A stretch of DNA of 64,000 bases from an uncultured Bacteroidota bacterium (lineage in GTDB: Bacteria; Bacteroidota; Bacteroidia; Bacteroidales; GCA-2748055), in NCBI GenBank assembly GCA_963713725.1, contig CAVQMZ010000017.1, forward strand, positions 37,242 to 101,241. The letters run 5' to 3'. The notes beneath the pieces were generated by a model, which saw only the letters and a program-made list of their open reading frames with translations, ran no database searches and was not told the origin of the DNA. The translations under genes were made by a program, and so were the position numbers. Numbering within the stretch: the first letter of the stretch is position 1; every line of letters starts with the position of its first letter. Shown here piece after piece: positions 17,369 through 50,384 of the stretch.

Positions 17369-17377
17369 GCCAATCTT

Positions 17378-18505: not shown

Positions 18506-18571
18506 GTGTAAAGGTTTTCGATAAGATTAGATACTTTTAAAGAGGATTAAAAATAGCAAAATACATTTGAA

Positions 18572-30797: not shown

Positions 30798-30801
30798 AAG
30801 T

Positions 30802-32340: not shown

Positions 32341-32347
32341 TAACAGG

Positions 32348-32603: not shown

Positions 32604-32686
32604 AACAGCCTTTCTTAATCAAATTACCTGTACAAAATTACGCAAAACCGGATACACGTGCAATTAAATCGTGATTTACACGTGTA

Positions 32687-34241: not shown

Positions 34242-34313
34242 CTTCTCTACACTTCTTTCAACCTTCTGTCAGGCTTTACATTTACTTCTTAAGACTTTGT
34301 CAACCTTTACAGA
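34242..34313 (-). repeat. degenerate TAAAGTC-type repeat spacer
   Basis: In gene sense: TAG-TCTGTAAAGGTTGACAAAGTCTTAAGAAGTAAATGTAAAGCCTGACAGAAGG...GAGAAG-ATG. Confidence 0.6.
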
Positions 34314-35862
34314 CTATCGTGTGATTACTGCATCCTCAGGACAAACCTGCCTGCAGCCATCACATTTAATACATAGTTCATTATCCACCACATGCTTTTC
34401 ATGGGGCTTAAAGGCAATGGCATCCACCGGGCAATCCTGGGCACAGAGGGTGCAGCCTATACAATCGTCGGTAATTTCATATTTAATCAGATCCTTGCAC
34501 TTTCCGGCCGGACATTCGCCCCGGATGTGGGCTTCATACTCATCCCGGAAATAATTCAGGGTGGAGAGAATGGGATTGGGAGCAGTACCACATAGTGCAC
34601 AAAGACTTCCCGTTTTGGTCCAGTGTGCCAGCTCCTCCAGCTTTTCCAGGTCCGTTTCACTTCCCTTTCCTGTGGTAATCTTCTCAAGGATCTCCAGCAT
34701 TCTTTTGGTACCAATGCGTCCAAAACTGCATTTTCCGCAGGCTTCATTCTGGGTAAAGGTGAGAAAGTAGCGGGCAATATCCACCATGCAGTCCTTATCG
34801 TCCAGTACCACCAGTCCGCCCGAACCCATCATGGCTCCCACCTCCTTGAGAGACTCAAAATCAATGGGGGTATCTGCCTTCCATGCGGGCACACATCCAC
34901 CCGAAGGTCCACCAATCTGAACAGCCTTAAATTCCCTGCCATCGGCCACTCCTCCTCCAATTTCCTCAACAACCTCACGGATTGTCATTCCCATGGGCAC
35001 CTCAATGAGTCCGCCCCGGGCAACCTTCCCGGCCAGGGCAAAAACTTTTGTTCCCCTGGATGATTCTGTTCCAATACTGTTAAAGGATGCGGCCTTGTTT
35101 TTCAGGATGTAGGCAATCTGGGCAAAGGTCTCCGTATTATTCACCAGCGTAGGCTGTCCCCACAATCCTTTCACCGCAGGAAAGGGTGGACGGATCCTGG
35201 GAAAGCCTCTTTTCCCTTCAATGGATTCGATCAAGGCGGTTTCCTCCCCACAGACAAAGGCACCGGCTCCCTGGTAGACAGTCAAGATCAAAATCAAATC
35301 CCGTCCCCAGAATATCCTTCCCAAGATATCCCTGTTCACGACATACCACAAGGGCCTGCTGAATTCGGGTAACCGCCAGCGGGTATTCGGCACGTATGTA
35401 CAGAATCCCTTCTGCTGCCCCCACAGCATAGCCTGCAGCAATAAGGCCTTCGATGATCCGGTAGGGATATGATTCCAGTAACATGCGATCCATAAATGCG
35501 CCCGGATCGCCCTCATCGCCATTGCAAATAATATATTTTTTCTCACTGCCGGCATCGGCCACCATCTGCCATTTCTTTCCTGTGGGAAATCCGCCTCCAC
35601 CCCTGCCCCGAATGCCACTTTCGATAATCTCATCAATCACCTCCTGGGGAGTCATTTTCTTCAGCACCCTTTGCAGGCCTCTGAATCCATTGCGCTGTTT
35701 ATACTCCTCAACATCCACGGGATTAATCACACCCCTGAATTCGGTGGCCATGGGAATCTGCTTATCCAGGAAAAGGGAGACATGCTTTTCCCTCACATCA
35801 AGCGAATAACGATCCACTCCATCCCAACGGCTGTCGTCCCGAACAGAATTGGCCATACTCAT
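34314..35862 (-). pseudogene. NuoF-like NADH-binding flavoprotein subunit with two C-terminal [4Fe-4S] motifs (HydB/HndC type), one frameshift near 35275-35290
   Basis: ORF 35218-35862 carries GIRGRGGGGFPTGKKW and CNGDEGDPGAF. ORF 34314-35636 carries GAFVCGEETALIESIEG, the CGKC region, CIGCTLCAQDCP and CIKCDGCRQVCP. The junction is ...GTGFDFDL/VYQGAGAFVCGEE. Confidence 0.8.
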
Positions 35863-36658
35863 CAGGCGATCTGCTTAAACGCCTTATCAGGCCGTCGGGC
35901 TGGAAATGCCGTTCCACAATCTGATCCACATCGGCAGCATCCACTTTTGAATAAAGGGTGGGCTCCCCATGGGTAGGAACAATCTCCACCAGGGGAACCT
36001 GGTGACACATGCCCACACAACCCACATGTTTAAGTTTTACATTCAATCCCTTGCGGTCAATGGTATCTTTTACGGAATCGCGGATTTCATCACTTCCGCT
36101 GGCCACACAACATGAACCCAGCCCGATTCGAATCTCGCCCTTTACTTCACCACCGCCGGCATACTTGTATTTTTTCTTTTTTGAGCCACCCTCCTGGCTC
36201 TGAAAATCGGACAGAACCGAGGTCACCTTGGAAGTACTTACATGACCATAGGTCACCTCATCGATTTGCACCACGGGTGCCAGGGTACAGCAGCCCAGGC
36301 AGTTTACCTTTTCAATGGTATATTCACCGGATGGAGTGGTATCCTCCGATACTGCCAGACCAAGTTCGCGTTTCATGGCATCGTAAACCTGCTCGGCTCC
36401 CTTCACGTGACAGGCTGTTCCCACGCAAACTTTGATCATATGCTTTCCCGCCGGCTTAAAGCGGAACTGGGAATAAAAACTGGCCACACCCACAATCTGT
36501 GCTGGTGTAATCTCCGTGAGCTCGCAGACCCTTCTCAATGCCTCCTCGGGAAGATAATTATAACGTCCCTGTATGGCCTGAAGAATGGGAATCACCGCAT
36601 GCGGCTCCTTCCCCAGCTCCTCCACAATCCCATCTATATCTCTTATCTCAATCTCCAT
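35798..36658 (-). CDS. NuoE-like [2Fe-2S] subunit with a second thioredoxin-like [2Fe-2S] domain
   Basis: 286 aa with CVGTACHVKG...CLGCCTLAP (NuoE fold) and a second GLGSCCVASG...CVGMCHQVP domain. The last ~20 codons overlap the NuoF-like start by 65 nt and may themselves be frame-shifted. Confidence 0.8.
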   Translation of the reverse strand: MEIEIRDIDGIVEELGKEPHAVIPILQAIQGRYNYLPEEALRRVCELTEITPAQIVGVASFYSQFRFKPAGKHMIKVCVGTACHVKGAEQVYDAMKRELGLAVSEDTTPSGEYTIEKVNCLGCCTLAPVVQIDEVTYGHVSTSKVTSVLSDFQSQEGGSKKKKYKYAGGGEVKGEIRIGLGSCCVASGSDEIRDSVKDTIDRKGLNVKLKHVGCVGMCHQVPLVEIVPTHGEPTLYSKVDAADVDQIVERHFQPDGLIRRLSRSPDEYGQFCSGRQPLGWSGSLFA

Positions 36659-36800
36659 TAACCCGCTAACTTCTAACTTATTAACCCACTAACTCTACTA
36701 ACCCTACTAACCTCTAACTTATTAACCCCTAACCTACTAACCCACTAACCTACTAACTTACTTAACCCACTAACTCACTAACCCCTAACCTGCTAACTTA
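36659..36800 (+). repeat. G-depleted YTAAC tandem-repeat spacer, copy 4 (antisense to local transcription)
   Basis: 142-nt intergenic region of CGCTAAC/TTCTAAC/CCACTAAC/CCCCTAAC units with 2 G. It has the same absolute orientation as copies 1-3, but the flanking genes are on the minus strand. Confidence 0.95.
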
Positions 36801-38702
36801 TTAACCGCTCGCTTCGCGAGCTATTTTTCCAATACAGTATAGATTTTTTGTCCCTCTCAAATAGATCACCCCATCTGCAAAGGCAGGAAGCGCAAAACCC
36901 TGCTCTCCAAGTTCGGGTTCGGCAATGATTGTTCCGCTGGCATCGGCCTTCATAATATGACATATACCCTCCTTGTCCATGATATATAGCTTACCCTCTG
37001 CAATGACAGGAGAAGACCAGATTTCATTGTCAAACTCCTTTTCCCATTTTTTCTCTCCGGTTTTGGCATCATAGCACACCACCACTCCAAAACTGGTGGC
37101 CATGTACATTAAACCCTGGTGAGCAACCGGACTGCCCACTTCTGACATGTACTCATCATCTTCCCACACATACTCCCCCACTGATTTTGGGTCAATGGCC
37201 AGGGTCCGCGCATACTCCTGAGAAGCAAAAACCAGACCATCGGAGAAGGCTATGGACGGTCCCACTTCTCCCATCATGGCCTCAACTTTCCATAATTCCG
37301 CCCCGGTAGCCAGATCATGACCCGACACATAAGGATCAGCCGATGTGACAATCTGTATTTTTCCATCCACTTCGATGAGCGCGGGGGAAGCCCATGAAAT
37401 ATGAACCGGCCTTTCCACGTCCCATACCGTTTCACCGTTTGCCGTATTCAGGGCCAGCATACGCCCCTTTGTATTGGTATCATACTGAACTACAACTTTA
37501 TGATCCCACACCTGAAGTGAAGAGGAATGGCCATAATGGTTGTTGGGCACACCCAGGTTTCGTCCCCATATCTTCTTTCCGTCCAAAGTGAAGGCCACTA
37601 TATCACCATTGGCGAAAATGGCATAAACAGCCTTTCCGTCCACAGCCATGGTGGCAGCAGCAAGACCGGTATCCTCGGTAACCCTGGGCATGGTGGCAGG
37701 TGATCCCGGTATATCTTTCACTTCTTTTTCCCAAAGGAGCTGTCCCGTATTCCGGTCATAGCAGGCAACTACCAGTCCGTCCTTATCTCCTCCGGAAATA
37801 AAAATCCTGCTGCCCCAGATTACTGGTGAATTATACCCGGGCTTGGAAAATGCCACCTTCCACTTTACTTTCTGACCCGATGGACCATCCCATTCCACAG
37901 GAATATTCTTATGAAATGAAACACCCAGCCCCATATAACCCCTGAAAGTGGCATGGTTAAGCTTAAAATCATTCCGGTTGAAAGCTCCGCCTGAAGCCGC
38001 ACTGGCTATGGAGTTTTTCTCCTGAACTGTTTCAACGCCCGCAGACGAAGGTGCCGGGCTGACTTCCTGCTCAGTGACGGCCCCATCCGGCACAGCTTCG
38101 GATGAAGACTCAGCGAGGCCTTCCTCCGGGGCTCCAACTTCACCTGCGGCCTGGTTCTCACCAAAAACATCCACCACCTCCACATCACTTACTTCCCCGA
38201 CTGAAACAGCAGATTCAGCCATCTGGTCATATTCCTTGAGAAAATCGTTGGTTAAAACACCCGCTACAAGCGAAAGACCAAGGATGAGCCCTCCGGCCAG
38301 GAAGAGCCAGTACTGGGCATTTGCCCTTGCCTTAAGAAGCCCTTCTGTAAGTTCTTCCGGAGCTTCGATGCCCGCTCTTAAATCGGTATAGAATTTCATG
38401 GAAACAGCCAGTACAATACCACCGATGAGCAGGAGCCAGGTACCTGTCTTTACCTGCCAGCGGCTGGTGAAATAGGCCTTTCTTGCCAGCAAATCAAAGC
38501 TTCGGATTTCCTCCTTGAGCTCCTCATTGTTTGGCTCCTGTGACAGGCGCTTAACCAGGGCCTCTATGGCCTGACTTTCCAGTGGCTCGGTCTGCTTCAT
38601 ATGCCAGAAATTCAGAATCAGAAGCAAGGCCACCACTCCGCAAAATATACCGGAAATGAGCATTGCCCTGTGTGCCACTTTTATTTTATTTTCTTTATCC
38701 AT
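36801..38702 (-). CDS. membrane-anchored PQQ-like beta-propeller repeat protein
   Basis: 633 aa. It has three N-terminal TM helices, an acidic A/E/V/S-rich linker, then a propeller with repeated ...G.LWE/W.. blades (DGKAVYA, DGKIQIV, EGKLYIM). Confidence 0.75.
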   Translation of the reverse strand: MDKENKIKVAHRAMLISGIFCGVVALLLILNFWHMKQTEPLESQAIEALVKRLSQEPNNEELKEEIRSFDLLARKAYFTSRWQVKTGTWLLLIGGIVLAVSMKFYTDLRAGIEAPEELTEGLLKARANAQYWLFLAGGLILGLSLVAGVLTNDFLKEYDQMAESAVSVGEVSDVEVVDVFGENQAAGEVGAPEEGLAESSSEAVPDGAVTEQEVSPAPSSAGVETVQEKNSIASAASGGAFNRNDFKLNHATFRGYMGLGVSFHKNIPVEWDGPSGQKVKWKVAFSKPGYNSPVIWGSRIFISGGDKDGLVVACYDRNTGQLLWEKEVKDIPGSPATMPRVTEDTGLAAATMAVDGKAVYAIFANGDIVAFTLDGKKIWGRNLGVPNNHYGHSSSLQVWDHKVVVQYDTNTKGRMLALNTANGETVWDVERPVHISWASPALIEVDGKIQIVTSADPYVSGHDLATGAELWKVEAMMGEVGPSIAFSDGLVFASQEYARTLAIDPKSVGEYVWEDDEYMSEVGSPVAHQGLMYMATSFGVVVCYDAKTGEKKWEKEFDNEIWSSPVIAEGKLYIMDKEGICHIMKADASGTIIAEPELGEQGFALPAFADGVIYLRGTKNLYCIGKIAREASG

Positions 38703-38745
38703 TTTCTCTTTCTTTCAGACTTTACGACTTTATGACTTTACAGAC
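38703..38745 (-). repeat. TAAAGTC octamer repeat spacer (cleanest copy)
   Basis: In gene sense: TAA-TCGTTAAGTCTGTAAAGTCATAAAGTCGTAAAGTCTGAAAGAAAGAGAAA-ATG. TAA occurs in all three frames. Confidence 0.9.
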
Positions 38746-38955
38746 TTAACGATTAACCGGGCTTGCCCGGTCCACCGGGCAGTAATCCATACACCTTCCG
38801 CAGGAAAAACAATTTGCTTTGTGGGGTTCATAATCCTCCCTGCTCCGGAATACCACCTGGTTCATAAGGGTAATTCCCAGCACAAGGCCAATGAATCCAC
38901 CCAGGACCCAACCTCCCTTTTTAAATTTCGTTCTGATTACAGCGGCCTGCTCCAC
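38746..38955 (-). CDS. TM helix + [4Fe-4S] motif fragment; probably the C-terminal part of the NapH-like protein
   Basis: 69 aa with no ATG (GTG only) and CFSCGRCMDYCP. Its frame stays open upstream to 13 nt from the NapH-like stop. Deleting one C near 39027-39030 fuses them (...LMISPAELRDDETNLDIQAF...). Confidence 0.5.
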   Translation of the reverse strand: MEQAAVIRTKFKKGGWVLGGFIGLVLGITLMNQVVFRSREDYEPHKANCFSCGRCMDYCPVDRASPVNR

Positions 38956-39025
38956 CAGCTCCTCAAAAGTATCCCCCGATTCCAGGAAGGCCTGGATATC
39001 CAGGTTAGTCTCATCATCCCTCAGC

Positions 39026-40039
39026 TCAGGCTGGACTGATCATCAGCTCGGCCAGGTAAACATCGGGGTGCATTCTGCTCAGGAATACATCAGATTTTGA
39101 TCCGATCCATCCCCCCAGCACAACCAGCACAGGAATCAAGGCAATATAAGTGATGAAGCTTTTTAGATACTTCCTGGTCACTTCAGGCTTACGGTAAGCC
39201 TTATCAACCGGAACCTCAATGGCATCAAAGGGACATGAGTCCTTACAAAGTTTGCATTTAATGCATTCGGAAGGGGTAATGCTCAAATGCCACTTAGAAA
39301 ACTTCGACATCCAGCTCAGTAATACACCGTAGGGACAAAATACCCGGCAATAGGGCCGTGCATAAAACATCCCCAACAAAAGAAAGGTGACGCCCAGGAA
39401 GATCATCAGAAAAGGACCATCCATACGGAAGATCCCCACAAAAGGATCATACCTGCAAATAATAAAATCGCTTCCAGTGGCTGCCAGCAGAACGGCAAGC
39501 CCCAGGTATATTACCGGTATAAAGCCAAGGGTTTTCCTGATCCAGCTGGGGATGGATACCGGGTTGATGACCAGCAGGTCCTGTATGGCACCCAGGGGAC
39601 AGACCGAGGCACAGAAAACCCTGCCAAAAAAGAGGGCAAAGATCAGAGGCAGCAGGAAAAAGATCAGGGCTGCCAGGGATATGGTATAGGCAGGATCAAA
39701 TATGGAGAGGGCCACATTCTGTATGGCTCCCACCGAACAGATACAACCATCACGGTAGAAGCCGAAATAAATCAGGGTGAAAACAGAAAGCCAGAGCAAT
39801 CCCTTTCTTGAGCGTTTGCGCACGGCCAGCCAGGAGGCCAGTGAAAGTGCTGCCAGCAAAACAAAAACATCGAAATATTCAAGTGCCACAGTCCGTGGTT
39901 CAGGGGTTGTGGGATCGGGCTGGACATATCCACTGTCAAATTCGGGTTTTGGAAAACGCTGCTGTCCATGAATCAGGGTGCTTGCGCTAACCATGATGAG
40001 TAAGAGCAGGATGAAAAAACCCGGGGTCCGTTTTGGCAT
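39026..40039 (-). CDS. NapH/MauN-like polytopic membrane [4Fe-4S] protein
   Basis: ORF 39026-40135; the likely start is MPKRTPGFFILLLL at 40039, 1 nt after the NapG-like stop. It has multiple TM helices, two CxxxCP-type motifs (RVFCASVCPLGA, RVFCPYGV) and CIKCKLCKDSCP. Confidence 0.8.
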   Translation of the reverse strand: MPKRTPGFFILLLLIMVSASTLIHGQQRFPKPEFDSGYVQPDPTTPEPRTVALEYFDVFVLLAALSLASWLAVRKRSRKGLLWLSVFTLIYFGFYRDGCICSVGAIQNVALSIFDPAYTISLAALIFFLLPLIFALFFGRVFCASVCPLGAIQDLLVINPVSIPSWIRKTLGFIPVIYLGLAVLLAATGSDFIICRYDPFVGIFRMDGPFLMIFLGVTFLLLGMFYARPYCRVFCPYGVLLSWMSKFSKWHLSITPSECIKCKLCKDSCPFDAIEVPVDKAYRKPEVTRKYLKSFITYIALIPVLVVLGGWIGSKSDVFLSRMHPDVYLAELMISPA

Positions 40040-40040
40040 A

Positions 40041-40649
40041 CTAACCCTCCTTTTCATTGGTAAAGTTCCCTTTGATGATATAGGGTTTATTTGCTGGCAC
40101 CCTGCTGATGGCCTTGGAAGGACAAGCTGTTGCAATGGCGCACTGATTGCAATTCTTGCACCTGTCGTGCCTGATCTGCAAATGCAGGGACCCGTTCCCG
40201 AAGGCGGAACAGCCTTTCACGCACTTGGCACAACCAATGCAAAGTGGCTCATCGATAATGTATTCGAAATAGGGTTCCTCGATAAATTTTCTCTGTATGG
40301 CTGCAGTGGGGCAAAGCTGGTTCTCCGCACCGGTTTGCAATTTGGCTCCCGGCTTGAAGTAGCCTCCGCACAGATCGCAGTATCCACAAAGGTCATAGGC
40401 ATGCACACACTTTACGGCCGATTCGGCCATCACACACTCGGTGGCACAGCGACCGCACTGGGTGCATTTGAAGGGATCGATCTGCCAGACATACTCCTCT
40501 CCACCGGATCTCCTTGTCAGGGCCATGGCACCAGTGGCCACAACGCTAAGGCCGAGTGTCAGCCTTACCCCCTTATTGATAAATTCCCTCCGCTTATATG
40601 TCTTATCCTTTTCCATATCCCCTTTCATTTTTTGCATCGGGAAGATCAC
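40041..40649 (-). CDS. NapG/MauM-like periplasmic poly-[4Fe-4S] ferredoxin with twin-arginine signal
   Basis: 202 aa with RREFINKGVRLTLGLS (TAT signal) and four Cys clusters (CTQCGRCATEC, CGYCDLCG, CIGCAKCVKGC, CKNCNQCAIAC). The start is ambiguous: M at 40649, 40637, 40628 or 40616. Confidence 0.8.
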   Translation of the reverse strand: MIFPMQKMKGDMEKDKTYKRREFINKGVRLTLGLSVVATGAMALTRRSGGEEYVWQIDPFKCTQCGRCATECVMAESAVKCVHAYDLCGYCDLCGGYFKPGAKLQTGAENQLCPTAAIQRKFIEEPYFEYIIDEPLCIGCAKCVKGCSAFGNGSLHLQIRHDRCKNCNQCAIATACPSKAISRVPANKPYIIKGNFTNEKEG

Positions 40650-40806
40650 AAGCCTTTAGCTTTGAACAGTTCCTGCATTGAAGATTTAATCCACAATCCT
40701 TTTCCAGCGAGATCTGCCTCCTGGAGAGCAGCACACCTGCCAATATGGCCATGGAAGCTAAAATACCTCCCCTTACCAGGGCGGATATAAATGTTTTTCT
40801 ATTCAT
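40603..40806 (-). CDS. small membrane-anchored Cys4 protein (67 aa), unknown family
   Basis: MNRKTFISALVRGGILASMAILAGVLL (one TM helix) followed by C-x5-C-x2-C-x5-C (CGLNLQCRNCSKLKAC). It overlaps the upstream stop by 8 nt and the downstream NapG-like gene. Confidence 0.45.
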   Translation of the reverse strand: MNRKTFISALVRGGILASMAILAGVLLSRRQISLEKDCGLNLQCRNCSKLKACDLPDAKNERGYGKG

Positions 40807-41769
40807 CTTTTTTAGGTTCAAAAATCCTGATGGTATTCTGGTCAAAATCCAGGGCATAAATCACCCCCTGCTCATCACAGCAAATATCCGGGGCCTCGCC
40901 CTCCTCCACGAACAGATCGGGTGGGGCCACCACACTCACAAGTTTCCCCTCCTGGTCATGTATCTTGATTCTCACCATGCCCTTCTCGCTGGTCACAAAA
41001 GAACCATCGGCCATTACGGTTATCCTTGCCGGGTTACAGCAACCCAGAAAGCCATCGATATCAAAAGAAGCATTTTCCCAGAAGCCCCTCATGCGACCAT
41101 CGTCGCTGTAGTTTTCCAGGGCATGCTTGCCCGGGTTTACAACCCATAATTCTCCAAAATCATTCACCAGCCAGGTCAAAATTGGCACTGGGCACTATAA
41201 AGCCATGACCGGCCTCACTTTCAGACTTTCCCTCAAAGGCGCCCAGTAACTCGCCTTCATGATTGTAGATGTGAACCTTTCTGTTTCCGGCATCAGCCAC
41301 ATATACCTTCTCACCATTTCCTGCCAGGTTGGTGATCACAGCCCTGCTCCCCCAGGCTCTCCCATTTTTTAATCAGCTTCATTTCCCCATCGTAATGAGC
41401 CACAAAGTTTTTATAGGCCACAAATATCCCCTCATCTTCCACCAGAAGGGCTACTGATCCTGGAAGGATGTCATATTTCTGAGGACCGGACCCGTCAGTA
41501 TCCATGATCACCAGGTTAGAAGAACCTGTCACAAAAAGTTTTCCCCGGGCATATACAAGGGCCGATCCCTTCAGTGAACCCAGTGAGAGATTGCGGGTTT
41601 CTTTGTGAGAGATCAGTTTGGAGTCCACATCCTTAAAATGCTCTACCTCCAGGGCATAGGGATTGCTTCCCCTGCGATCGGGACGATTATTCAGAAAATC
41701 AACTACGATAACCGTAATAATCACCAGCACGATAAGCAGTACAACTATGGTAAGTCCTCTTTTTTTCAT
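40799..41769 (-). pseudogene. NHL/six-bladed beta-propeller-like protein with N-terminal TM anchor, at least 2 frame changes
   Basis: Fragments 41311-41769 (MKKRGLTIVVLLIVLVIITVIV...) and 40799-41188 (...GCCNPARITVMADGSFV...). The middle part is readable in another frame (...GEKVYVADAGNRKVHIYNHEGELLGAFEG...). Confidence 0.6.
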
Positions 41770-41789
41770 TTGGTCTTTTTAAGTTGTTT

Positions 41790-43232
41790 TCATTTTCTAT
41801 TGGCTGCCATGTCCAGGCAAATCATTGTTTTTGCATCCCTCAGCACCATGTAACCATCAGCCACCGCCAGGGGGCCCCAGGCATCGTGACCGTCAATCAC
41901 CTGATAGCGATCCAGCTCCACATACTCTCTGGTGCTGGGTTTTGCAATGATCAGGGTACCATCATCATCCAGGATGAAGAGCTTTTGATCGGCGATCATA
42001 TAGGGTCCAAGGCCAAATCTTATTTCCGGTCCGCTTGACCAGACTACCTCGTTAAAGTTATCAGGATGCACACAAATCAGCTGGTTTCGTAAGGGTCCGG
42101 CGTCCTTGGGGAGTATTCCCAGCAGGTGTCCTTCAAAAACCACCGGAGTCTGCTGCTCACTTGCCAGTCCCTCTTTGGGAAGATATTCCGAAATGACCTC
42201 CACGTTAAACTGTGTTCCTGTCCCGCTGAGCTGGAGAACCATGGCCCCCGCTCCATATCCAGCAGTCAGAAATATTTTCCCATCGGGCAAACAAACCGGT
42301 GAGGGTGCCACAGTCTGGTGGTTCCAGGCCTGACTTTCCCACAGAAGCTTTCCGGCCAAATCACCTTCTGCACCTATCCCGCAGACTCCTCCGAAGGCAC
42401 TGTATACATACATTTTTACCCCATTAAATTCGTAGGGCATGATGGATGAGTGGGACATCAGCCACTTATGCGGATTGGGAGTTTCCCACAGGATCTCCCC
42501 GCTTTCGAGATCGGCTGCCACCATCAGTGAGCTTCCGCCAGTGGCAATAATTGCCCTGTCACCATCGATAAGCGGACACTGACCGGTATTCCAGAGTGGA
42601 ATATCGGCCTCATAATCTAGGGCCACATTAAGTCCCCACAGTAGTTCACCGTCGGCTCTTCTCACACACATTACGTGGGCTTTGGGACCAATGGTCAGGA
42701 TGTAATCCTCGGTCACAGCCGGCACAGTCCTTGACATCCCATGGTTGCGCTTCAGGTTGATCTGATATCCCCGGCGCCATAATTCTTCTCCACTTTCCAG
42801 ACGGAAGCAGCGCAGAAGGTCGGCACGCATTTCCTCATCATGATCCAGCACATAAACAAGGCCTTTATAAATGGCCGCAGCAGCATATCCTTCTCCAAGT
42901 TCTACCTGCCATAGCTGCTCGGGTCCACCTTCAGGAAAGCGATCGATCAGTTTAATGGGCGATTTGCTGATATTATCAAAATTCTCTCCCCGGAACCTGG
43001 GCCAGGTTTCGTTCAGTGCACTTTCAGTTTCACCCTCTCCGGCATCGGAAAGAACTTCATAAAAAGCCCCGATCTCAATGTCGGGGACCACAGCCTTGGC
43101 ACCCCTGTTATCCAATCCGGGCTGGGTGGTCACCAGCTCATTCACCGGATCAAACCCCAACCACCATGACAGGGATATTAGCCCGGCAAGAACCAGAAGA
43201 GCAGTGCTAATATTGATTGTGTTTAATTTCAA
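41790..43232 (-). CDS. PQQ-like beta-propeller repeat protein with N-terminal TM anchor
   Basis: 480 aa with TM helix ALLVLAGLISLSWWL and the WPRFRGENFDN...GPEQLW entry motif shared with the neighbouring paralogues. Confidence 0.75.
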   Translation of the reverse strand: MKLNTINISTALLVLAGLISLSWWLGFDPVNELVTTQPGLDNRGAKAVVPDIEIGAFYEVLSDAGEGETESALNETWPRFRGENFDNISKSPIKLIDRFPEGGPEQLWQVELGEGYAAAAIYKGLVYVLDHDEEMRADLLRCFRLESGEELWRRGYQINLKRNHGMSRTVPAVTEDYILTIGPKAHVMCVRRADGELLWGLNVALDYEADIPLWNTGQCPLIDGDRAIIATGGSSLMVAADLESGEILWETPNPHKWLMSHSSIMPYEFNGVKMYVYSAFGGVCGIGAEGDLAGKLLWESQAWNHQTVAPSPVCLPDGKIFLTAGYGAGAMVLQLSGTGTQFNVEVISEYLPKEGLASEQQTPVVFEGHLLGILPKDAGPLRNQLICVHPDNFNEVVWSSGPEIRFGLGPYMIADQKLFILDDDGTLIIAKPSTREYVELDRYQVIDGHDAWGPLAVADGYMVLRDAKTMICLDMAANRK

Positions 43233-43234
43233 AT

Positions 43235-44507
43235 CTATTCAGCTATGTTATAGACAAAAAGAACCTCTCCATGTCTTATAAAAAGTTTTTTGTCGAAAAT
43301 CGACATATGGGCCCAGTAGGGTCCGTCGCCACCCTCAAGCTGGAAGGAACTAACCACTTCAAAAGCTTCCGGATTTGGTAAGAGCAGTCCCACGTGACCC
43401 CGCTTTTCTTCAAAGATATACAGCATGCCATCGGCATAGATAATGGATCCCTTGTTATGCCAGGATTCCTCGTACATGACCTTGCCTGTTTCCCACTCCT
43501 GGCATACCCAGTTACCATTCCCGTTATTGATCCAGTTTGCTCCGTAGATATAACCATCAACAAGTACCACGCCTCCATGGTGGGTATCCAGGGTTCCATC
43601 GCTCCATTTCAGTTCTACTTTTTTTCCGCCTTCTGAAAGCTTCAGCATCTGGGCATTTACATCGTAACCACTGGTCGTAAAAATTTCCCCGTCCTTGTAT
43701 AGGGGCGTATTGGTATTGTTCCTCCTGCCCCTTTCACCGGACTGGTCAGATATAATATCAAAACTCCAGATGATGTTCCCATTTTCAGGATCAACCGCAA
43801 TCATATCCTTATCTGATGTAATCAGAATCATTTTCTGACCTTCAAACTCTATCATCAGCGGAGAGACATAGGACCTGACTCCACCCACAGATTCGGTTTT
43901 CCAAATCAGGGAACCGTCTTTCTTATCCAGTGCAACGGCCACTGTCTGATTACCAATGGGAGATGAGATCACTGCGCGGTCCGTAAGAAGCAGGGATTCG
44001 GTCATTCCCCAGCGATGAAATTCACCTCCAAATTCCTCATGGGTATTCACACTCCATAAAAGCTCCCCACTTTCTGTATCCAGACAGGCTACAGAACCAA
44101 GACCTCCCATAATGTAGATGCGTCCGTCCTCTATGGTGGGGGTGCTCCTGGTTTCTGCAAAGGACTGATTCCATGCCCTCCCAAAGACTGTTTCCCAGGC
44201 AATGTTCCCTTCCATATCCAGACGGGTGAGCACATCCAGGGTATCGCGACGACCACTGATATATATGGCGCCTTCATAATAATATGGGTGTGGAATAGCC
44301 ATTGCCCAGGCCTTCCTTCTTAAGGATCAGTTCGGGCCCCTCTTCAGGCCAGGACTTAAGCAAACCCGTATCGGAATATTTCCCATCCCGCATCTCTCCC
44401 CTCCACTGGCTATTCTGCGCAAATAAATCTCCCTGCACATATATGATGGTGCATCAATAATAAAGCACCCACATATTAAACATCCTCCGTCTAAATTCCA
44501 TTTTCAT
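43235..44507 (-). pseudogene. PQQ-like beta-propeller repeat protein; in-frame TGA at codon 18 and one frameshift near 44300
   Basis: ATG 44505-44507 overlaps the stop of the upstream paralogue (ATGA). The reading is MKMEFRRRMFNMWVLYY-TGA-CTIIYVQGDLFAQNSQWRGEMRDGKYSDTGLLKSWPEEGPELI...GYSTPI, then shifts into ORF 43235-44302. Confidence 0.65.
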
Positions 44508-45763
44508 TTATTACCTATTCTACTAATCTTATATGCAATAAGAACCTTTCCATGCCTCACCAGCAACATTCCATTATAAATGGCACGGTCTCGCCCAATG
44601 AGGACCGCTCCCTTCACTAACCCTGAAGATCGAGATCACTTCAAAGCCTTCAGGATCGGCTTTTACCAGGGCCATGTTCCCCCTTTTTTCCTCATAACAA
44701 TAAAGCATGCCATCGGCAGAAATGATCGGGTCCCTTGTTGAACCAGTCGTTGGATCCAGACAATTTCACCGGTATCCCAGTTCATGCAGACCCATTTACC
44801 GGAATATCTTCCGGTAAAGTTTGATCCGTAGAGATAGCCATCCAGCAAAACAACACCATGGTTCTGGTTATCAAAGGTCTGATCCACAAATTTTTCCTCA
44901 CTGACTTCCCGTCGGGGGCAATTTCAAGCATTACCGATTCCTTATCCCATCCACTGGTAATCCACAGGCAACAGTCACTGTAGGTGGGTGTATTGGCAAG
45001 GATGGTTGAATTCTGCAGCCTGCTCATCCAGCACATTGTAATGATAGGTCCACATGATCTCACCATTTTCAGGATCCACTGAAATCACGTGGGTTCTGGT
45101 CGCTGTAATAATGTACTCACTACCGCAATGCTCGATGAGTATGGGAGAAAGATTGGACCGCTGTGCCTCCAAAGACACGGACTTCCAGACCAGCTCGCCA
45201 CTCATCTTATCCAGGGCAATCACCGTGGTATTTTCACCTGCCGGGTGTGACAATAACTTTATCCTCCACCAGCAGGATGGATTCGGACACCCCGAACATA
45301 TCCCAGTGGCTCTTATATACTTCGTGGACATTCACCTCCCACAATTTTTCACCGGTGATGGCATGGAAACAAACCAGCATATCCATACCCGTGAGCACAT
45401 ATATGCGATCCCCATCAACGGTGGGTGTACATCTGCGATTCCGGGAAGGATTGTTTCCATCCCGGACCGAACGGATTTTGCCAGAGAAGATTTCCCTCCA
45501 TATCCAGGGCTGTCAGGTATTCAAGGCTGTCCTTAATCCCTGTGGTATAGATCACATTTCGGGTGGCAACCGCTGAAGAATAACTTTTCCCCAGATCCTC
45601 GGCTACAAAAAGTATCTCGGGGCCATCCTCTGGCCAGGCTTCAATAAATTTGTCGCCGGAAAAATCCCGTTGCGCTGTCGGGCCTCTCCACTGAGCATCC
45701 TGCCCCGAAACCAAAACCGACAGACAAACCAACAACAACGCATGCAACACCAATTCTCAACAT
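44504..45763 (-). pseudogene. PQQ-like beta-propeller repeat protein, at least 6 frame changes
   Basis: Fragments 45415-45753, 44975-45331, 44782-45066 and 44663-44887, plus unlisted pieces, read consecutively. The tail ...ALVKADPEGFEVISIFRVSEGSGPHWARP/AIYNGMLLVRHGKVLIAYK parallels the C-terminus of 45791-46999. Confidence 0.65.
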
Positions 45764-45790
45764 TTTTCTTTCGACTTTACGCTTTAAGAC
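45764..45790 (-). repeat. TAAAGTC-type repeat spacer
   Basis: In gene sense: TAA-GTCTTAAAGCGTAAAGTCGAAAGAAAA-ATG. Confidence 0.7.
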
Positions 45791-46999
45791 TTATTTGACT
45801 TTATAGGCTATAACCGCACTCCCATGCCTTAAATAAAGAACACCGTCATCAATAATGGGATGCGCCCAGTGCTGTTCTGAGCCTTTTGACACTTTGGTCT
45901 TGCTGACTACCTTAAACTCTGAAGGATCGGCTTTTACCAGAGCCAGTTCGCCACGATCGGTATAACAATAGAGCATGCCATCGGCATAGATCACCACTCC
46001 TTTTCCCAACTCGGTGGAAGCATACATCTCCTTCCCTGTATCCCACTCAACGCAACGCCACTCACGGGCATAATCGCCTGACATGTATATATAGCCGTCT
46101 ACAACAACGGCTCCACTCATACGACTGTCCAGCTTTTTACTGAACCATGACTGGGTAATAGAGGACCCGTCCATACTTAGAATCAGTGATCCGCCACCCT
46201 GGCCATAACCGCTGAAATAGAAAAGGACCCCATTCTGGTATATGGGCGTATTGGCATGAACGCTGTAATCGTTAGGCTGTTTGTGGGACCACAACAAATC
46301 GCCGTTAAGTGCATCCAGTCCGATCAGGTAGGATGCTGTATGCGTGATCAGAATTTTTCGTCCATTGTGATCGATCAAAAGCGGACTGCAATATGCGGAA
46401 AGCTCTCCTTTGCCCTTGCTGCTCCAGATCAAATCACCCGAGTGCCTGTTAAGGGCAACTACATTATTATTTCTCCCTCCCGGGGTGGCATAAATAATAT
46501 CTCCATCCACAACAGGTGTTTCATTTACCCCCCAGGTAATATTTTTCCCATCGAAGTCCTTAAACAAGGCTTTCGTCCATAAAATGGAAGCGTCTCCAGC
46601 AGCCATACAATATAACACGCCATTACCCGAGACAAGGTAAATCTTATCTCCGGCAAGCACAGGGGAACCCCTGCTACCAGTATAGCTGGAATTAAATTCG
46701 GGTCCATAGGCTTTCGTCCAGATTAGCTCCCCATCCAGCTTGAATTTAAAAAGCATACCAGTCTCCTCAACCATGCCGCTGACATAAAGAAAGCCCTGGC
46801 TTACCACAGGAGAGGAATGCCCCGTACCCAGTTTTTCGTAGGACCAGAGCTCCTCGGGTCCGGAAACAGGCCATTTCTTCAACAATCCCGTTTCACTATA
46901 AATCCCATTTCCGGATTCGCCTCGCCATCGGGTTGCAGGCTGAGAAAAACCCTCTGTAGCCAGAGCGGAGAGAAATAAGAAAATCAGCAATCGTTCCAT
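45791..46999 (-). CDS. PQQ-like (BamB-like) beta-propeller repeat protein, secreted
   Basis: ORF 45791-47059; the likely start is MERLLIFLFLSALATEGFSQ (signal peptide) at 46999. It has WRGESGNGIYSETGLLKKWPVSGPEELW and repeated G.L.W blades. It is the first gene of the minus-strand array. Confidence 0.8.
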   Translation of the reverse strand: MERLLIFLFLSALATEGFSQPATRWRGESGNGIYSETGLLKKWPVSGPEELWSYEKLGTGHSSPVVSQGFLYVSGMVEETGMLFKFKLDGELIWTKAYGPEFNSSYTGSRGSPVLAGDKIYLVSGNGVLYCMAAGDASILWTKALFKDFDGKNITWGVNETPVVDGDIIYATPGGRNNNVVALNRHSGDLIWSSKGKGELSAYCSPLLIDHNGRKILITHTASYLIGLDALNGDLLWSHKQPNDYSVHANTPIYQNGVLFYFSGYGQGGGSLILSMDGSSITQSWFSKKLDSRMSGAVVVDGYIYMSGDYAREWRCVEWDTGKEMYASTELGKGVVIYADGMLYCYTDRGELALVKADPSEFKVVSKTKVSKGSEQHWAHPIIDDGVLYLRHGSAVIAYKVK

Positions 47000-47298: not shown

Positions 47299-47964
47299 AT
47301 GACGGATAAGGCACATTACGCAGTTGTCGCTGGAGAATTAGCCCCTGGTTCGAAGATCCCTGATAAGCAACTCACAAAAATCCCCGACCTGATCAGGGCG
47401 TCATTTCAGACCGTAAACCGTCTGGTAGAGGGAAAAGGAAAACTGAGTTACGAGATTATTCGCATGGACGAGTTTCTGGCCATGTCAGAGTCTCCCCTGC
47501 ATTGCCTTCGATCCGTGATTATGCTTTTCAGCGCATTCAGATTTCTATCATACAAGGAGTTAAATGAAAGGCTCGATCTAAAGATCAGCATTGGAATAGG
47601 TCCCGTTGAATTTGCCCGGGAACACCTCAGGGAATCGGATGGGACTGCATTCAGGGCTGCAACCGAGGGCAACAGGAACATGAAGCGCAAACAGCGTATT
47701 CAGATCATCACTCCCTCTGAGGCCCTCAATGGTGAGTTTGAACTCACTTGCTCTTTTATGGATATTCTGATCCATGATTGGTCGGACGAACAGGCTGAAG
47801 CCATGTTCCTCAACCTGACCGGTAAAAATCAGATGGAGATCAGCCAGATGCTGAATATATCCCAGCCTGCAGTGAATCGCAGACTGAAGGCGGCTCATTT
47901 TGATACGATCCACAAATTCATTAATCGCTTCGAACAAATCATTCAAACCTCCGAAGACCAATGA
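47299..47964 (+). CDS. SatD-like protein with C-terminal sigma-70 region-4/LuxR-like HTH (putative regulator)
   Basis: 221 aa. The N-terminus YAVVAGELAPGSKIP... resembles SatD-family starts. The C-terminus is LTGKNQMEISQMLNISQPAVNRRLKAA (HTH). Confidence 0.45.
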   Translation: MTDKAHYAVVAGELAPGSKIPDKQLTKIPDLIRASFQTVNRLVEGKGKLSYEIIRMDEFLAMSESPLHCLRSVIMLFSAFRFLSYKELNERLDLKISIGIGPVEFAREHLRESDGTAFRAATEGNRNMKRKQRIQIITPSEALNGEFELTCSFMDILIHDWSDEQAEAMFLNLTGKNQMEISQMLNISQPAVNRRLKAAHFDTIHKFINRFEQIIQTSEDQ

Positions 47965-50384
47965 AAGCTGCTCACTGGATTATATTAAGCCTGACCTGCA
48001 TTTTTTCCATATGGTTTGTATACCGGACCAGGGATACCGAACCCAGGAAAGAGAGCTCACTGGATCTGAACTGGCACTTCATCCTTGGCGATCCTGAGGG
48101 TGCCTCCAGTCCCACCTTTAATGATTCCAGGTGGCGTTATGTGACCATTCCCCACGACTGGATGATTGAACAGCCTGTGAAGGAAACTAATCCATCCGGA
48201 ATAGCAGGTGGATATTACCCTGGTGGAATTGCCTGGTACAGAAAAAGTCTCGATTTGAGTTCTTTTGAGGAAAACGAACAGTTTTACCTTCTTTTCGAAG
48301 GTGTTTACCGGAATGCAGATGTGTATTTTAATGGCATACACATGGGCAATCATGCCTATGGATATACCAGCTTTTACTATGACATATCGGAACACATCAG
48401 AAAAGACACACTGAATATTATTGCGGTCCGTACCGATTGCAGCCAGATGCCCTGGGATCGCTGGTATTCGGGGGCAGGCATTTTCAGGCCGGTCAAACTG
48501 ATTGCAAGCTCCCCCCTGCACATACCTCCATGGGGAAACTGGGCCAGCTCAAGCCTTGACAGTACAGGTAAAGCTACACTCCAGGTATCCACTGAAATTA
48601 AAAATATGGGGCGAAAGGGCCAGAGATATGATCTTCGTTACGACATTGTGGGGCCAGGAGGCAGGCTTGTGGCTGAAGCCCAGAGCACCAGTTTTGTAGA
48701 AGGAGGAGGGTCTGACACAACAGCCCACATCTTCCAGATTGAGGCGCCCTTGCTATGGTCGCCTGAAACACCTCAGTTGTACACAGTAAATTGCTATCTG
48801 AAGGATGGAAACAAAATTCTTGATCACACCCAGACCATACACGGAATACGATCAGCCCGGTTCGATCCCAATCTTGGCTTCATCCTGAATGGCGAAAAAA
48901 AGATGCTGAAAGGCGTATGTCTCCATCATGATGGCGGTGAATTGGGAGCTGCAGTACCCATGGAAAGCTGGAGAAGAAGACTGCTCATCCTTAAGGAATT
49001 GGGTGTTAACGCGGTGAGACTTGCCCACAACCCTCATGCTCCTGGTATGCTGGATTTGTGTGATGAGCTTGGGTTTATGGTGATCAATGAAATGTACGAC
49101 AAATGGGAAGAATCCTGGTGGGAAGGTCAGGTGAATACGGATATGGCGAATCACTGGGAAAGTGACCTGGCCGACTTCGTCCGACGTGACCGCAACCACC
49201 CTTCAGTTATTCTCTGGAGTGTGGGAAATGAAACCGTGGAGCAACTGAGTAATCCCGAGCGGGGTGTGGAAATCTATACCTCTCTCGTGGATCTGGTCAG
49301 GTCCATAGACCCCACCCGTGAAGTGACCTGCGGACTTCACCCGGGTAAGGCCAGTGAGGGTCATGAAATTCCATCGAGCCTCATGCATGTTTCACCGGTG
49401 GTTTCCTACAATTACAGAAGTGACTCTTTTGCCACCTGGCATGCGCAATACCCCAATATGATCTTCCTTGCATCGGAAACAAGGGCCTATGCCAATGAAA
49501 TACCCGATGATTACAGGAAGCTGGATTACACAGACAACTCATGGAACAAGATGGAAGAGTTTGTGGCCGGACAGTTCATATGGGCAGGCATTGACTACCT
49601 GGGAGAATCGGGAGGATGGCCCTCCAGAGGATGGGAAACCGGCCTTATGCGTACCAATGGTTTTATCAAGCCACACGCCTGGTACATCGGATCCAGATAC
49701 AGGGAAGATCCCATGGTCAAACTGACTGTGCTTGATACGGTAATGGCCGACGCAAAGAACAAACTCAATAGCTGGCAGAAGAGCTGGATGGGCGCCCCTC
49801 TTGTGGATCACTGGACATTCGGACCGGAAACAGACACCGGCATGGTGGTGATCTTTACCAATTGCGAAAGAATCGAATTAAGTCTGAACAATAAAATACT
49901 GGCATCACTGGAACGAAGTGAATTTAACGACGGTGTTATTCGTTCTGCCATACCCTATGAAAGGGGTGAACTTCTGGCAACTGCCTTCTATATGGATGAT
50001 TATGGAAGGGAGCAAAAAGTGACAGACACCCTGCGAAGCGCTGATAAGGCCTATGCACTTGCCATGGAACCAGACCGGCAAAGGCTAAGCTCAGAAAACA
50101 GGGATGTGGTCCACATCACTACACGTGTGGTGGACAGCACCGGAACCCTGAATCCTGACAGCCGGCACCAGGTGAATTATACCCTGGATGGTCCCGGCCG
50201 GATCCGTGTCATAGACAACGGCGACCTGACTGACCATACTTCTTTGGGATCAAGTTCAAAGGAAGTCAGGCGAGGAAAACAACTTCTCATACTTCAGGCC
50301 GGAAGTGAGCCGGGAGACCTGATTATTAATGCAAGTGCTGAAGGCCTAAAACCTTCCAGAGTTCAAATCAAGTCCACTGAATAA
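47961..50384 (+). CDS. glycoside hydrolase family 2 protein (beta-galactosidase/glucuronidase-like)
   Basis: 807 aa with WRYVTIPHDW, GIAWYRK, GVNAVRLAHNP, NEMYD and WSVGNE (GH2 acid/base region). Confidence 0.85.
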   Translation: MKAAHWIILSLTCIFSIWFVYRTRDTEPRKESSLDLNWHFILGDPEGASSPTFNDSRWRYVTIPHDWMIEQPVKETNPSGIAGGYYPGGIAWYRKSLDLSSFEENEQFYLLFEGVYRNADVYFNGIHMGNHAYGYTSFYYDISEHIRKDTLNIIAVRTDCSQMPWDRWYSGAGIFRPVKLIASSPLHIPPWGNWASSSLDSTGKATLQVSTEIKNMGRKGQRYDLRYDIVGPGGRLVAEAQSTSFVEGGGSDTTAHIFQIEAPLLWSPETPQLYTVNCYLKDGNKILDHTQTIHGIRSARFDPNLGFILNGEKKMLKGVCLHHDGGELGAAVPMESWRRRLLILKELGVNAVRLAHNPHAPGMLDLCDELGFMVINEMYDKWEESWWEGQVNTDMANHWESDLADFVRRDRNHPSVILWSVGNETVEQLSNPERGVEIYTSLVDLVRSIDPTREVTCGLHPGKASEGHEIPSSLMHVSPVVSYNYRSDSFATWHAQYPNMIFLASETRAYANEIPDDYRKLDYTDNSWNKMEEFVAGQFIWAGIDYLGESGGWPSRGWETGLMRTNGFIKPHAWYIGSRYREDPMVKLTVLDTVMADAKNKLNSWQKSWMGAPLVDHWTFGPETDTGMVVIFTNCERIELSLNNKILASLERSEFNDGVIRSAIPYERGELLATAFYMDDYGREQKVTDTLRSADKAYALAMEPDRQRLSSENRDVVHITTRVVDSTGTLNPDSRHQVNYTLDGPGRIRVIDNGDLTDHTSLGSSSKEVRRGKQLLILQAGSEPGDLIINASAEGLKPSRVQIKSTE

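Follow-up and report, generated by a model that had tools for sequence, protein, structure and literature searches.

A conserved operon-like gene cluster combining an NfnABC-like flavoprotein module, a NapH-family membrane protein and beta-propellers in Bacteroidota and other phyla

Membrane proteins of the NapH, NosR and MauN type are widespread. Both the partners of their cytoplasmic iron-sulfur (Fe-S) clusters and the way in which electrons cross the membrane are still in question. The NapH protein of E. coli has four transmembrane (TM) helices and both of its termini are cytoplasmic. In the Nos system an electron module sustains a metal centre, which is loaded by an ATP-binding cassette (ABC) complex. 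CcoG/RdxA, a relative in the NapH family, is a cupric reductase that works without a partner enzyme. NapH-like proteins have been described as modular transmembrane electron carriers that accompany the propeller enzymes NirS and ExaA, and NuoF-like cytosolic donors occur in the analogous MsrQ-like systems (Méheust et al. 2021, eLife, PMC8238504). Here we describe a cluster of beta-propeller, Fe-S, flavoprotein and ABC transporter genes in a 64,000-nucleotide stretch of DNA from an uncultured Bacteroidota bacterium (the whole stretch is referred to as the window) and its relationship to these systems.

The cytoplasmic part of the cluster has relatives of its own in the soluble enzymes NfnABC and StnABC. 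NfnA is composed of an N-terminal Fe-S domain, an NfnL-like flavin adenine dinucleotide (FAD) domain and an Fdh/NuoG-like domain, and the C-terminal B3/B4 clusters of NfnB are the low-potential electron exit to ferredoxin (PMC11829005).

The operon appears to be a variant of the NapH-family transmembrane electron-transfer systems. Judging from its sequences, we lean, with confidence a little above even, towards an NAD(P)H-fed transmembrane Fe-S wire that would supply a membrane-anchored propeller complex. Like the NapH-like systems of Méheust et al. (PMC8238504), it contains a PF12801 membrane Fe-S protein, here a putative electron carrier for periplasmic partners. However, those systems are defined by an ApbE-flavinylated domain that binds flavin mononucleotide (FMN), and no match to FMN_bind or ApbE was found in any cluster protein. 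The carriers here are a poly-ferredoxin and a small Cys4 protein, the partners are propellers of the BamB and NHL types for which no cofactor is known, and the ABC transporter is of the MacB type. The nos cluster also co-encodes a periplasmic propeller, a NapH-family electron module and an ABC machine, a likeness that is a functional analogy and not a membership. Here there is no NosZ, NosD, NosL, cupredoxin or seven-His hub (no Pfam or NCBIfam match to NosZ, NosD, NosL or a cupredoxin domain in the cluster proteins), and the ABC proteins are of the MacB/FtsX type. Nos (NosZ), Mau and cytochrome partners were considered and rejected, as no such genes lie in the window cluster or in any related locus. 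No published description of this gene set was found in literature searches, and as far as we could find the system is undescribed, as suggested earlier.

Gene content and conservation of the cluster

The features of the cluster are given below in the direction of the minus strand, with the state of each gene in the window and the evidence for its identity.

45791-46999 (minus): secreted propeller of the PQQ_2/BamB type (prop1 type), intact, accessory; PQQ_2 E=3e-27
44504-45763 (minus): additional secreted PQQ_2 paralogue, at least five frame changes; stop-free segments in three frames, tblastn high-scoring segment pairs in frames -1, -2 and -3
43235-44507 (minus): secreted PQQ_2 propeller (prop2 type), at least one frameshift near 44280 and a signal-peptide lesion
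41790-43232 (minus): 8-bladed propeller with an N-terminal TM anchor (TMprop478 type), intact; PQQ_2, AlphaFold2 (AF2) model
40799-41769 (minus): 6-bladed NHL propeller, TM-anchored, two 1-bp insertions; AF2 model, Foldseek
40603-40806 (minus): 67-aa Cys4 protein with a signal-anchor resembling those of twin-arginine translocation (Tat), intact; open reading frame (ORF), alignment of 27 orthologues
40041-40616 (minus): Tat-exported poly-ferredoxin, 17 Cys in four groups, intact; Fer4 families
38746-40039 (minus): NapH-like Fe-S protein with seven predicted TM helices, one 1-bp insertion near 39034; Fer4_5 and Fer4
36801-38702 (minus): 3-TM-anchored PQQ_2 propeller (prop601 type), intact; PQQ_2
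36657-36806: hairpin and ~17 degenerate tandem 8-mers, intergenic, between the 3-TM propeller and NuoEF genes
34314-36658 (minus): NuoE-NuoF fusion (BfuC-BfuB type), two frame changes; Pfam, frames -1, -2 and -3
32638-34241 (minus): 2Fe-2S (Fer2_4), Fer4_20 and GltD/NfnL-like FAD/NAD(P)H protein, at least three frame changes
31928-32418: PIN_3-domain gene and small upstream partner, toxin-antitoxin-like, frameshifted
30802-31928 (minus): prop410-type propeller (Beta-prop_ACSF4/PQQ_2), at least three frame changes
29465-30797 (minus): GT4 glycosyltransferase, frameshifted
28725-29402 (minus): MacB-type ABC ATPase, intact
26350-28695 (minus): FtsX/MacB_PCD permease, intact

A sequence-only reading of the window had listed ten of these genes. 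All ten are present on the minus strand at coordinates that agree exactly or differ by no more than ~30 bases, and their assignment to PQQ_2, NHL, Fer4_5 and Fer4 is supported by Pfam, profile and structure matches. The Pfam matches to PQQ_2 have E values of 3e-37 to 5e-12 in the products of 45791-46999, 43235-44507, 41790-43232, 36801-38702 and 30802-31928; the paralogue at 44504-45763 was typed by tblastn with secreted propellers of two related loci (L002 and L005) and not by Pfam. The start of the ferredoxin gene is most likely 40616 instead of 40649. Only five of the ten, a point not raised in that reading, are intact (45791-46999, 41790-43232, 40603-40806, 40041-40616 and 36801-38702), and at least eight cluster genes in the window are frameshifted. 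The absence of a recognisable catalytic subunit holds within 36801-46999 but not directly downstream, where the NuoEF, GltD-like flavoprotein, GT4, ABC and FtsX genes are found.

The cluster genes in the window overlap or lie 1-43 bp apart. This spacing is operon-like and speaks against separate transcripts, which would have counted against the sequence-only reading; the cluster is treated here as one operon. Scans for sigma-70 promoters and intrinsic terminators gave counts not above those in shuffled sequence, and Bacteroidota promoters lie outside the coverage of the scan.

The relatives used for comparison are labelled L001, L002 and so on for loci and P0314 for a protein. More than 120 clusters close to the NapH-like protein (67-92% identity, ~425 aa) are unnamed or called '4Fe-4S binding protein'. 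A motif scan of species-representative genomes gave 576 candidate relatives, not all of which need be orthologues because one of the two scan patterns (CPLGAIQD) may match generic NapH-family proteins. Co-conservation was examined at the species level in the loci of the best 80 of the 576, with the intact L002 proteins as tblastn queries. All of these loci are from Bacteroidota except one metagenome-assembled genome (MAG) labelled Chlorobiota, and most are from one order. Cultured carriers are Draconibacterium orientale, D. sediminis and Maribellus, and host habitats include sulfidic springs, cold seeps, sediments and sludge. An order of 13 genes is colinear in essentially every sufficiently long locus of the 80: secreted propellers, TM propeller, NHL propeller, Cys4 protein, ferredoxin, NapH-like protein, 3-TM propeller, NuoEF, GltD-like protein, prop410, GT4 and ABC/FtsX. 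The upstream flank (a regulator and GH2) is common to only 17-18 of the 80 loci.

The system extends beyond the Bacteroidota. A profile of the NapH-like protein was searched against 1.84 billion representatives and gave 467 matches at E<=1e-30, the best 150 of which were analysed. These are mostly full-length matches with 31-56% identity to L002, and in at least 150 clusters (50% identity level) the match to the protein spans all or most of its sequence. Among the 150 distant representatives, ten are natural fusions of the NapH-like protein to the 3-TM propeller (~1000 aa, propeller half matched at E 1e-71 to 1e-121). In one 90% cluster of fusions there are five full-length copies, with records in NCBI, JGI/IMG and ENA; another such cluster includes a second copy, also full-length, from a different source. 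One fusion cluster is named Phycisphaerae and another representative is Candidatus Aminicenantes. The fusions are topologically sound because the joined ends, the C-terminus of the NapH-like protein and the N-terminus of the 3-TM propeller, are both predicted to be cytoplasmic.

The gene set recurs in an Aminicenantes genome, a Phycisphaerae contig and three unassigned metagenomic contigs, and is thus found in at least three phyla in all. The Aminicenantes locus (L087) has exactly the gene order of the Bacteroidales. L084 and the Phycisphaerae contig have the same set with ABC/FtsX relocated or inverted. L085 and L088 carry a minimal set of ferredoxin, NapH-like protein (fused or not) with 3-TM propeller, NuoEF, 2Fe-2S subunit, prop410-type propeller and ABC/FtsX. 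L086 combines ABC/FtsX with a TM-propeller::NHL fusion, the ferredoxin and a NapH::propeller fusion. In nearly all versions, which span three phyla, the propeller gene is followed by those for NuoEF and 2Fe-2S/GltD, with overlaps or gaps of a few bases. MacB-type ABC genes are present in every distant version examined, and GT4 is co-conserved in Bacteroidota, Aminicenantes and Phycisphaerae and is found in most complete versions.

From these comparisons, the universal core consists of the ferredoxin, the NapH-like protein, the 3-TM propeller, NuoEF, the 2Fe-2S subunit, the prop410-type propeller and ABC/FtsX. Often added to this core are three further kinds of propeller (secreted, TM and NHL), the Cys4 protein and GT4. 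The MacB-type transporter, which was missing from the sequence-only reading, thus belongs to the conserved core. That reading had joined the propellers and the Fe-S pair in one unit, and the colinearity in 80 loci, the recurrence in other phyla and the natural fusions bear this out. Because of the fusions and the reshuffling across phyla, the cluster is best seen as a functional and physical unit and not as inherited synteny.

The components and their relationship to known families

The NapH-like protein begins with a cleavable signal peptide and an invariant periplasmic N-tail (QQRFPKPEF..GY.QP..T.PEPR), which precede the predicted TM helices. Two CxxxCP and two CxxCxxCxxxCP motifs, invariant in 12-16 orthologues, lie in K/R-rich loops that are predicted to be cytoplasmic by the positive-inside rule. 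Between the two Fe-S motifs lie a TM hairpin and an acidic periplasmic loop of 63 aa, and conserved Cys residues are found on the outer side in GCIC and ICRYDPF. In the poly-ferredoxin an RRxF(I) Tat motif and four Cys groups are conserved (79 orthologues). The alignment of the 67-aa protein has an R(R/K)xF signal-anchor and a CX5-6CX2CX5C-LP(E/Q)A motif, and this product is a putative periplasmic mini-protein with a single Fe-S cluster.

Family membership was judged by the curated cut-offs of NCBIfam. The intact L002 orthologue of the NapH-like protein scores 35.3 bits against the NapH model TIGR02163 (cut-off 213.05) and 31.6 bits against NF007013 (cut-off 234). The NapG model NF007012 gives 15.8 bits (cut-off 269) and the NosR model 38.5 bits (cut-off 1000). 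The propellers reach 33-136 bits against the BamB models TIGR03300 and NF008351 (cut-off 285). All propellers tested score 24-74 bits against TIGR03075, the model for alcohol dehydrogenases dependent on pyrroloquinoline quinone (PQQ) (cut-off 480), and they are 400-480 aa long as compared to ~600 aa in that family. Membership in the NapH, NapG, NosR, BamB and PQQ dehydrogenase families was rejected because the curated cut-offs are missed. Identity to the E. coli proteins is low, 28% over a 149-aa core for NapH and 21-28% for NapG. The Fe-S pair, described as NapG/NapH-like in the sequence-only reading, does not qualify as NapG and NapH, and the ferredoxin resembles NapG in a broad sense only.

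The likeness to NapGH, and also to NosGH and MauM/MauN, is one of architecture. In each case a polytopic protein carries two CxxxCP and two CxxCxxCxxxCP motifs that are (here by prediction) on the cytoplasmic side, and a Tat-exported periplasmic ferredoxin with four clusters, marked in our protein by the Tat signal and four Cys groups as in NapG, is encoded immediately upstream. However, the cluster protein differs in its signal peptide, its invariant N-tail, and the two extra TM helices and 63-aa loop that split its ferredoxin domain, so that its topology is not that of NapH. The operon context also differs. There are no nap, nos or mau genes (napA, napB and napC are absent from the window cluster and the related loci), and the co-encoded donor is a cytoplasmic NAD(P)H flavoprotein with no obvious quinol site.

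The NuoE-NuoF region contains the Pfam domains 2Fe-2S_thioredx, Complex1_51K, SLBB, NADH_4Fe-4S and Fer4_21. In intact relatives it is a single fused chain with a C-terminal 2x[4Fe-4S] domain. The L002 fusion matches NfnB (9n5u_B) at E=2e-213 over residues 176-777 and StnB (8oh5_B) at E=1e-201. Its GltD-like orthologue matches residues 3-301 of the NfnA/StnC chains and has an N-terminal domain, a GltD/NfnL-like part and a short Fer4_Nqo3-like tail, with a length of 521 aa versus 963-1178 aa. By sequence, the product of 32638-34241 is classified as a truncated BfuA/NfnA that lacks the Fdh/NuoG-like domain.

The module therefore has the BfuB/BfuC core (NuoE-like 2Fe-2S, an FMN/NAD site, NADH_4Fe-4S and the C-terminal 2x[4Fe-4S]) without the full architecture of NfnA. 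It shares with NfnABC/StnABC (PDB 9n5u, 9bov, 8oh5) the NuoE/NuoF-like core, the FMN, B1 and C1 sites and the C-terminal clusters, as well as an A-type subunit with an N-terminal 2Fe-2S and an NfnL/GltD-like FAD domain. It differs in that the C and B subunits are fused, the A subunit is truncated as described, and the module lies inside a membrane/periplasmic operon. Because it is encoded there, its low-potential partner is probably the NapH-like protein and not a soluble ferredoxin.

The propellers are encoded by seven to eight genes per locus. The prop1-type product (45791-46999) is 58% identical to prop1 of L002 and 72% to that of L005. The prop410-type propeller is a member of the core and adjoins the ABC/FtsX genes in several distant loci. 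In the AF2 model of the TM-anchored propeller (41790-43232) an N-terminal helix is followed by eight blades, with a score in the predicted local distance difference test (pLDDT) of 89, and its best Foldseek matches are BamB and tetrathionate hydrolase. With BamB and tetrathionate hydrolase (PDB 6l8a/7cqy, cofactor-free) it shares the 8-bladed PQQ_2 fold, but identity is 11-17% and the D-A loops of the cluster protein are long, conserved and polar. BamB is moreover an outer-membrane lipoprotein of the BAM complex, whereas the cluster propellers have signal peptides or inner-membrane TM anchors. Both the D-A and the B-C loops are long, and invariant positions make up 53% of the top loops versus 28% of the bottom loops (p=0.002, 68 orthologues). 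The motifs NHG[MI][ST]RTVPAV, GP..H..C, GQCPL, M[ST]HSS and DAWGP are kept in distant loci. The top face is polar and strongly conserved, with invariant His, Cys, Met and Arg. On this sequence evidence the TM-anchored propeller is the best candidate among the propellers for catalysis or ligand binding.

The NHL protein (40799-41769), which is in pieces in the window, has no Pfam match as it stands, and its intact orthologue has a weak NHL match. The AF2 model is 6-bladed with a pLDDT of 84.6, falling below 50 in the CC loop. It matches TRIM/Brat NHL domains by profile and the NHL domains of TRIM2/3 and Brat by Foldseek. An invariant vicinal Cys pair (GCCNP) lies in this flexible, low-confidence loop and is kept everywhere, including the TM-propeller::NHL fusion of L086. 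When profiles of the propellers and of the NapH-like protein were run on PDB sequences, only generic BamB, PQQ-ADH, TRIM-NHL and ferredoxin matches were found. The 3-TM propeller is probably a docking scaffold. As to whether the propellers are plain BamB scaffolds, which would have refuted the sequence-only reading, the TM propeller departs from one in its conserved polar top face; in the 3-TM propeller only structural residues are conserved.

The proposed electron path and competing explanations

In the NAD(P)H-fed wire that we favour, NAD(P)H would be oxidised in the cytoplasm by the Bfu-type module. Electrons would leave through the terminal 2x[4Fe-4S] domain of the NuoF-like subunit, which corresponds to the exit to ferredoxin in NfnABC, and would enter the ferredoxin-like cytoplasmic domain of the NapH-like protein. 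From there they would cross the membrane to the Tat-exported poly-ferredoxin and the Cys4 protein and reach a complex built on the 3-TM propeller, where the TM propeller and the NHL propeller would act on a periplasmic or extracellular substrate. The MacB-type ABC proteins may supply ATP-driven mechanical work, by analogy with NosDFY, for the loading of a centre or the handling of substrate or product.

An outlet for surplus reducing equivalents, or fermenter electron sink, is a plausible physiological role, and the most plausible one because the hosts are anaerobic polymer-degrading sediment bacteria. Electron flow in the reverse direction is possible. Sulfur or metal chemistry is a guess that is prompted by the tetrathionate hydrolase fold match and the Cys/His motifs. 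A bolder version of the path would be a new type of anaerobic electron export, in which a membrane-docked Bfu/Nfn flavoprotein using NADPH and NAD+ passes ferredoxin-potential electrons directly into the NapH-family ferredoxin domain for very-low-potential periplasmic reduction, assisted by the MacB-type ABC proteins. The catalysts would be the TM propeller with its His/Cys/Met face and the NHL propeller with its vicinal Cys pair, which have no known cofactor domain and may hold a metal or use thiols. We offer this version tentatively and consider it unlikely in its full form.

Several observations weigh against the favoured electron path. No propeller contains a recognisable cofactor domain and all are far below the PQQ dehydrogenase cut-offs. 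The top fold match of the TM propeller is BamB, and its 'pocket' is deduced from loop classes and not from three-dimensional clustering. The invariant residues of the 3-TM propeller (36801-38702) across phyla are structural only. The propellers had been put forward as the electron partners of the Fe-S pair; nothing shows that they are redox-active, and it is the one fused to the NapH-like protein that conserves structural residues alone. To our knowledge, the electron path across the membrane has been solved for no member of the NapH family. Bifurcation cannot be universal, because L086 has no adjacent NuoEF/GltD module and the 2Fe-2S subunit of L088 has no FAD domain. A pure electron-transfer model also leaves the roles of GT4 and the ABC transporter unaccounted for.

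Some of these points are shared by the explanation that survives best after the favoured one, although on balance we think it improbable. The propellers would be BamB-like scaffolds or assembly factors, and the Fe-S chain would reduce a small acceptor such as a metal ion, a sulfur species or oxygen; alternatively, the locus would be an envelope-biogenesis or maintenance machine, with the ABC/FtsX transporter, GT4 and the propellers as its envelope components and reductant needed for a maturation step. BamB as top fold match and the structural conservation of the core 3-TM propeller fit this explanation, as do the MacB-type ABC genes in every version examined and GT4 in most complete ones, and CcoG/RdxA is a relative that acts alone. 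It accounts poorly, however, for the long D-A loops of the TM propeller with their invariant polar His, Cys and Met across phyla, and for the invariant vicinal Cys pair of the NHL propeller. Seven to eight propeller genes per locus would also be a heavy investment for scaffolding alone.

Rather unlikely is the possibility that the Fe-S pair is a quinol dehydrogenase of the NapGH type that feeds redox-active propellers, and that the NAD(P)H module works apart from it as a cytoplasmic transhydrogenase and just happens to be a neighbour. The core of the membrane protein, with its two CxxxCP and Fe-S motifs, is homologous to E. coli NapH, and the ferredoxin is NapG-like in its export signal and Cys groups. 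L086 has the Fe-S pair and propellers with no NuoEF module beside them, and the StnABC/NfnABC homologues function as soluble enzymes. However, the NuoEF and 2Fe-2S/GltD genes follow the propeller gene nearly always in three phyla with tiny gaps or overlaps, and the NapH and NapG cut-offs are missed by far. The NfnA-like subunit of the cluster is also truncated and cannot be that of a standard Nfn enzyme, because its Fdh/NuoG-like domain is missing. The quinol dehydrogenase proposed in the sequence-only reading is undercut by this co-conserved cytoplasmic module of the Bfu/NfnABC type, which had been overlooked.

The frame changes raise the question of whether anything functional is encoded in this genome at all. 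If they were real, the cluster would be a decaying pseudogene array, a reading to which we give a slim chance. There are dozens of them between ~29.5 and 45.8 kb of the window. The flanking genes that could be checked (GH2, ABC and FtsX) are intact and the other ORFs of the window are long and densely packed. However, the lesions relative to the closest loci are nearly all single-base indels, mainly insertions, outside homopolymers, and identity to intact orthologues remains 55-90% in each of the frame segments. Deletion of one base restores a 430-aa NapH-like ORF, and deletion of bases 41345 and 41169 restores a 322-aa NHL ORF. Indels alone accounted for the breakage wherever reconstruction was attempted, although for the ORF at 44504-45763 deletion of the indels listed relative to L001 gave no full repair, at a DNA identity (~76%) that leaves indel positions uncertain.

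Other assemblies bear on the same question. L002 and L003 are two MAGs of one species that are identical outside a patch at 14-19 kb, and within it L003 differs from L002 by dense mismatches and indels (~3-15% of positions per kb), the mark of long-read sequence that was left unpolished. Comparable damage is found in L001 and P0314, which are from long-read contigs of the same lineage; P0314 (500 aa) was considered as a TM-propeller/NHL fusion and dismissed as frameshift read-through. The frameshifts in the window are thus probably long-read assembly errors.

In three independent assemblies (window ~29500-45800, L001 13-20 kb, L003 14-19 kb) the indel-dense patches coincide in their position within the cluster, and the flanks are clean. 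Strain variation without indels separates L003 from L002 at 12-13 kb, just ahead of the bad patch. Population microdiversity in the region may therefore defeat polishing.

Finally, it is very improbable that the locus is a set of independent operons (propeller array, Fe-S pair, Nfn-like enzyme, ABC/GT4) held in synteny by shared ancestry only: the best 80 loci do come from one phylum and most from one order, but the components are joined by gene fusions, other phyla have the same set with its genes rearranged and reoriented, and the cluster is conserved where its flanks are not.

Intergenic elements, neighbouring genes and significance

A hairpin (GCTCGCgaaGCGAGC) directly follows the stop codon of the 3-TM propeller gene, and the ~17 degenerate tandem 8-mers (GGTTAGTR on the coding strand) reach the NuoEF start. 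Close relatives have other short tandem units in the same place (GGTTAATGGTTATT, GGAAAGACAG, TGCTCAGT), and in many other loci the gap between the two genes is 6-20 bp only. The hairpin and repeats at 36657-36806 may be an attenuator or a processing site.

The octamer GTAAAGTC occurs in nine copies in the window as compared to 0.85 expected. The copies at 29434, 29496, 38718, 38734 and 45773 are on the minus strand, the coding strand of the cluster, and the remaining copies are at 681, 1733, 8358 and 23168. Four of the five coding-strand copies lie in short gaps upstream of the starts of the paralogue, the 3-TM propeller and the ABC ATPase, where they are locally tandem. The copy at 29496 is close to the 3' end of the GT4 gene.

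Small insertions are found at intergenic positions of the cluster. In the window the PIN_3 toxin-antitoxin-like pair separates the GltD-like gene from the prop410-type gene and is absent in L002, and other loci have different insertions. The inserted ORFs of some loci (toxin-antitoxin, transposase-like, SGNH-like) are lineage-specific and gave no functional clue. In four Draconibacterium loci (L049, L053, L064 and L066, ~1.7-5.2 kb) the first and second secreted propeller genes are separated by genes for a LytTR response regulator and a histidine kinase of the LytS type (His_kinase, E=3e-25). This pair may be a lineage-specific regulator of the operon in the cultured strains.

Upstream of the cluster, 47299-50384 on the plus strand encodes a divergent 221-aa protein with a weak C-terminal helix-turn-helix, followed by a GH2 glycosidase. 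This regulator and GH2 pair is a lineage-specific neighbour and not a member of the unit, as it adjoins the cluster in the 17-18 closest loci only. Elsewhere in the window, the ORFs at 18527-20530 (minus, 667 aa) and 18572-20848 (plus, 758 aa) overlap nearly fully and one of them must be spurious. In L084 the cluster is followed at 16803-17657 by a 269-aa Fer4 protein and a radical-SAM gene, and in the Phycisphaerae contig by a glutathione peroxidase gene; neither arrangement was seen in Bacteroidota. These downstream genes are possible functional hints that are inconsistent between loci.

The operon unites a cytoplasmic NAD(P)H flavoprotein, a NapH-family protein, a periplasmic ferredoxin and propellers, and the fusions indicate contacts among them. 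It is common, with at least 80 confirmed species-level genomes, and it occurs in the cultured and potentially tractable Draconibacterium and Maribellus. If the propellers are catalytic, they would represent a new class of periplasmic reductase, perhaps an electron sink for anaerobic polymer degraders of sediments. If they are scaffolds, the operon would still be a new architecture for the export of reducing power. Should the electron-export reading be true, the operon would give fermentative bacteria of sediments, in several phyla, a new module for respiration or as an electron sink, and it would provide the first genetic evidence for what the cytoplasmic Fe-S clusters of the NapH/NosR family connect to.

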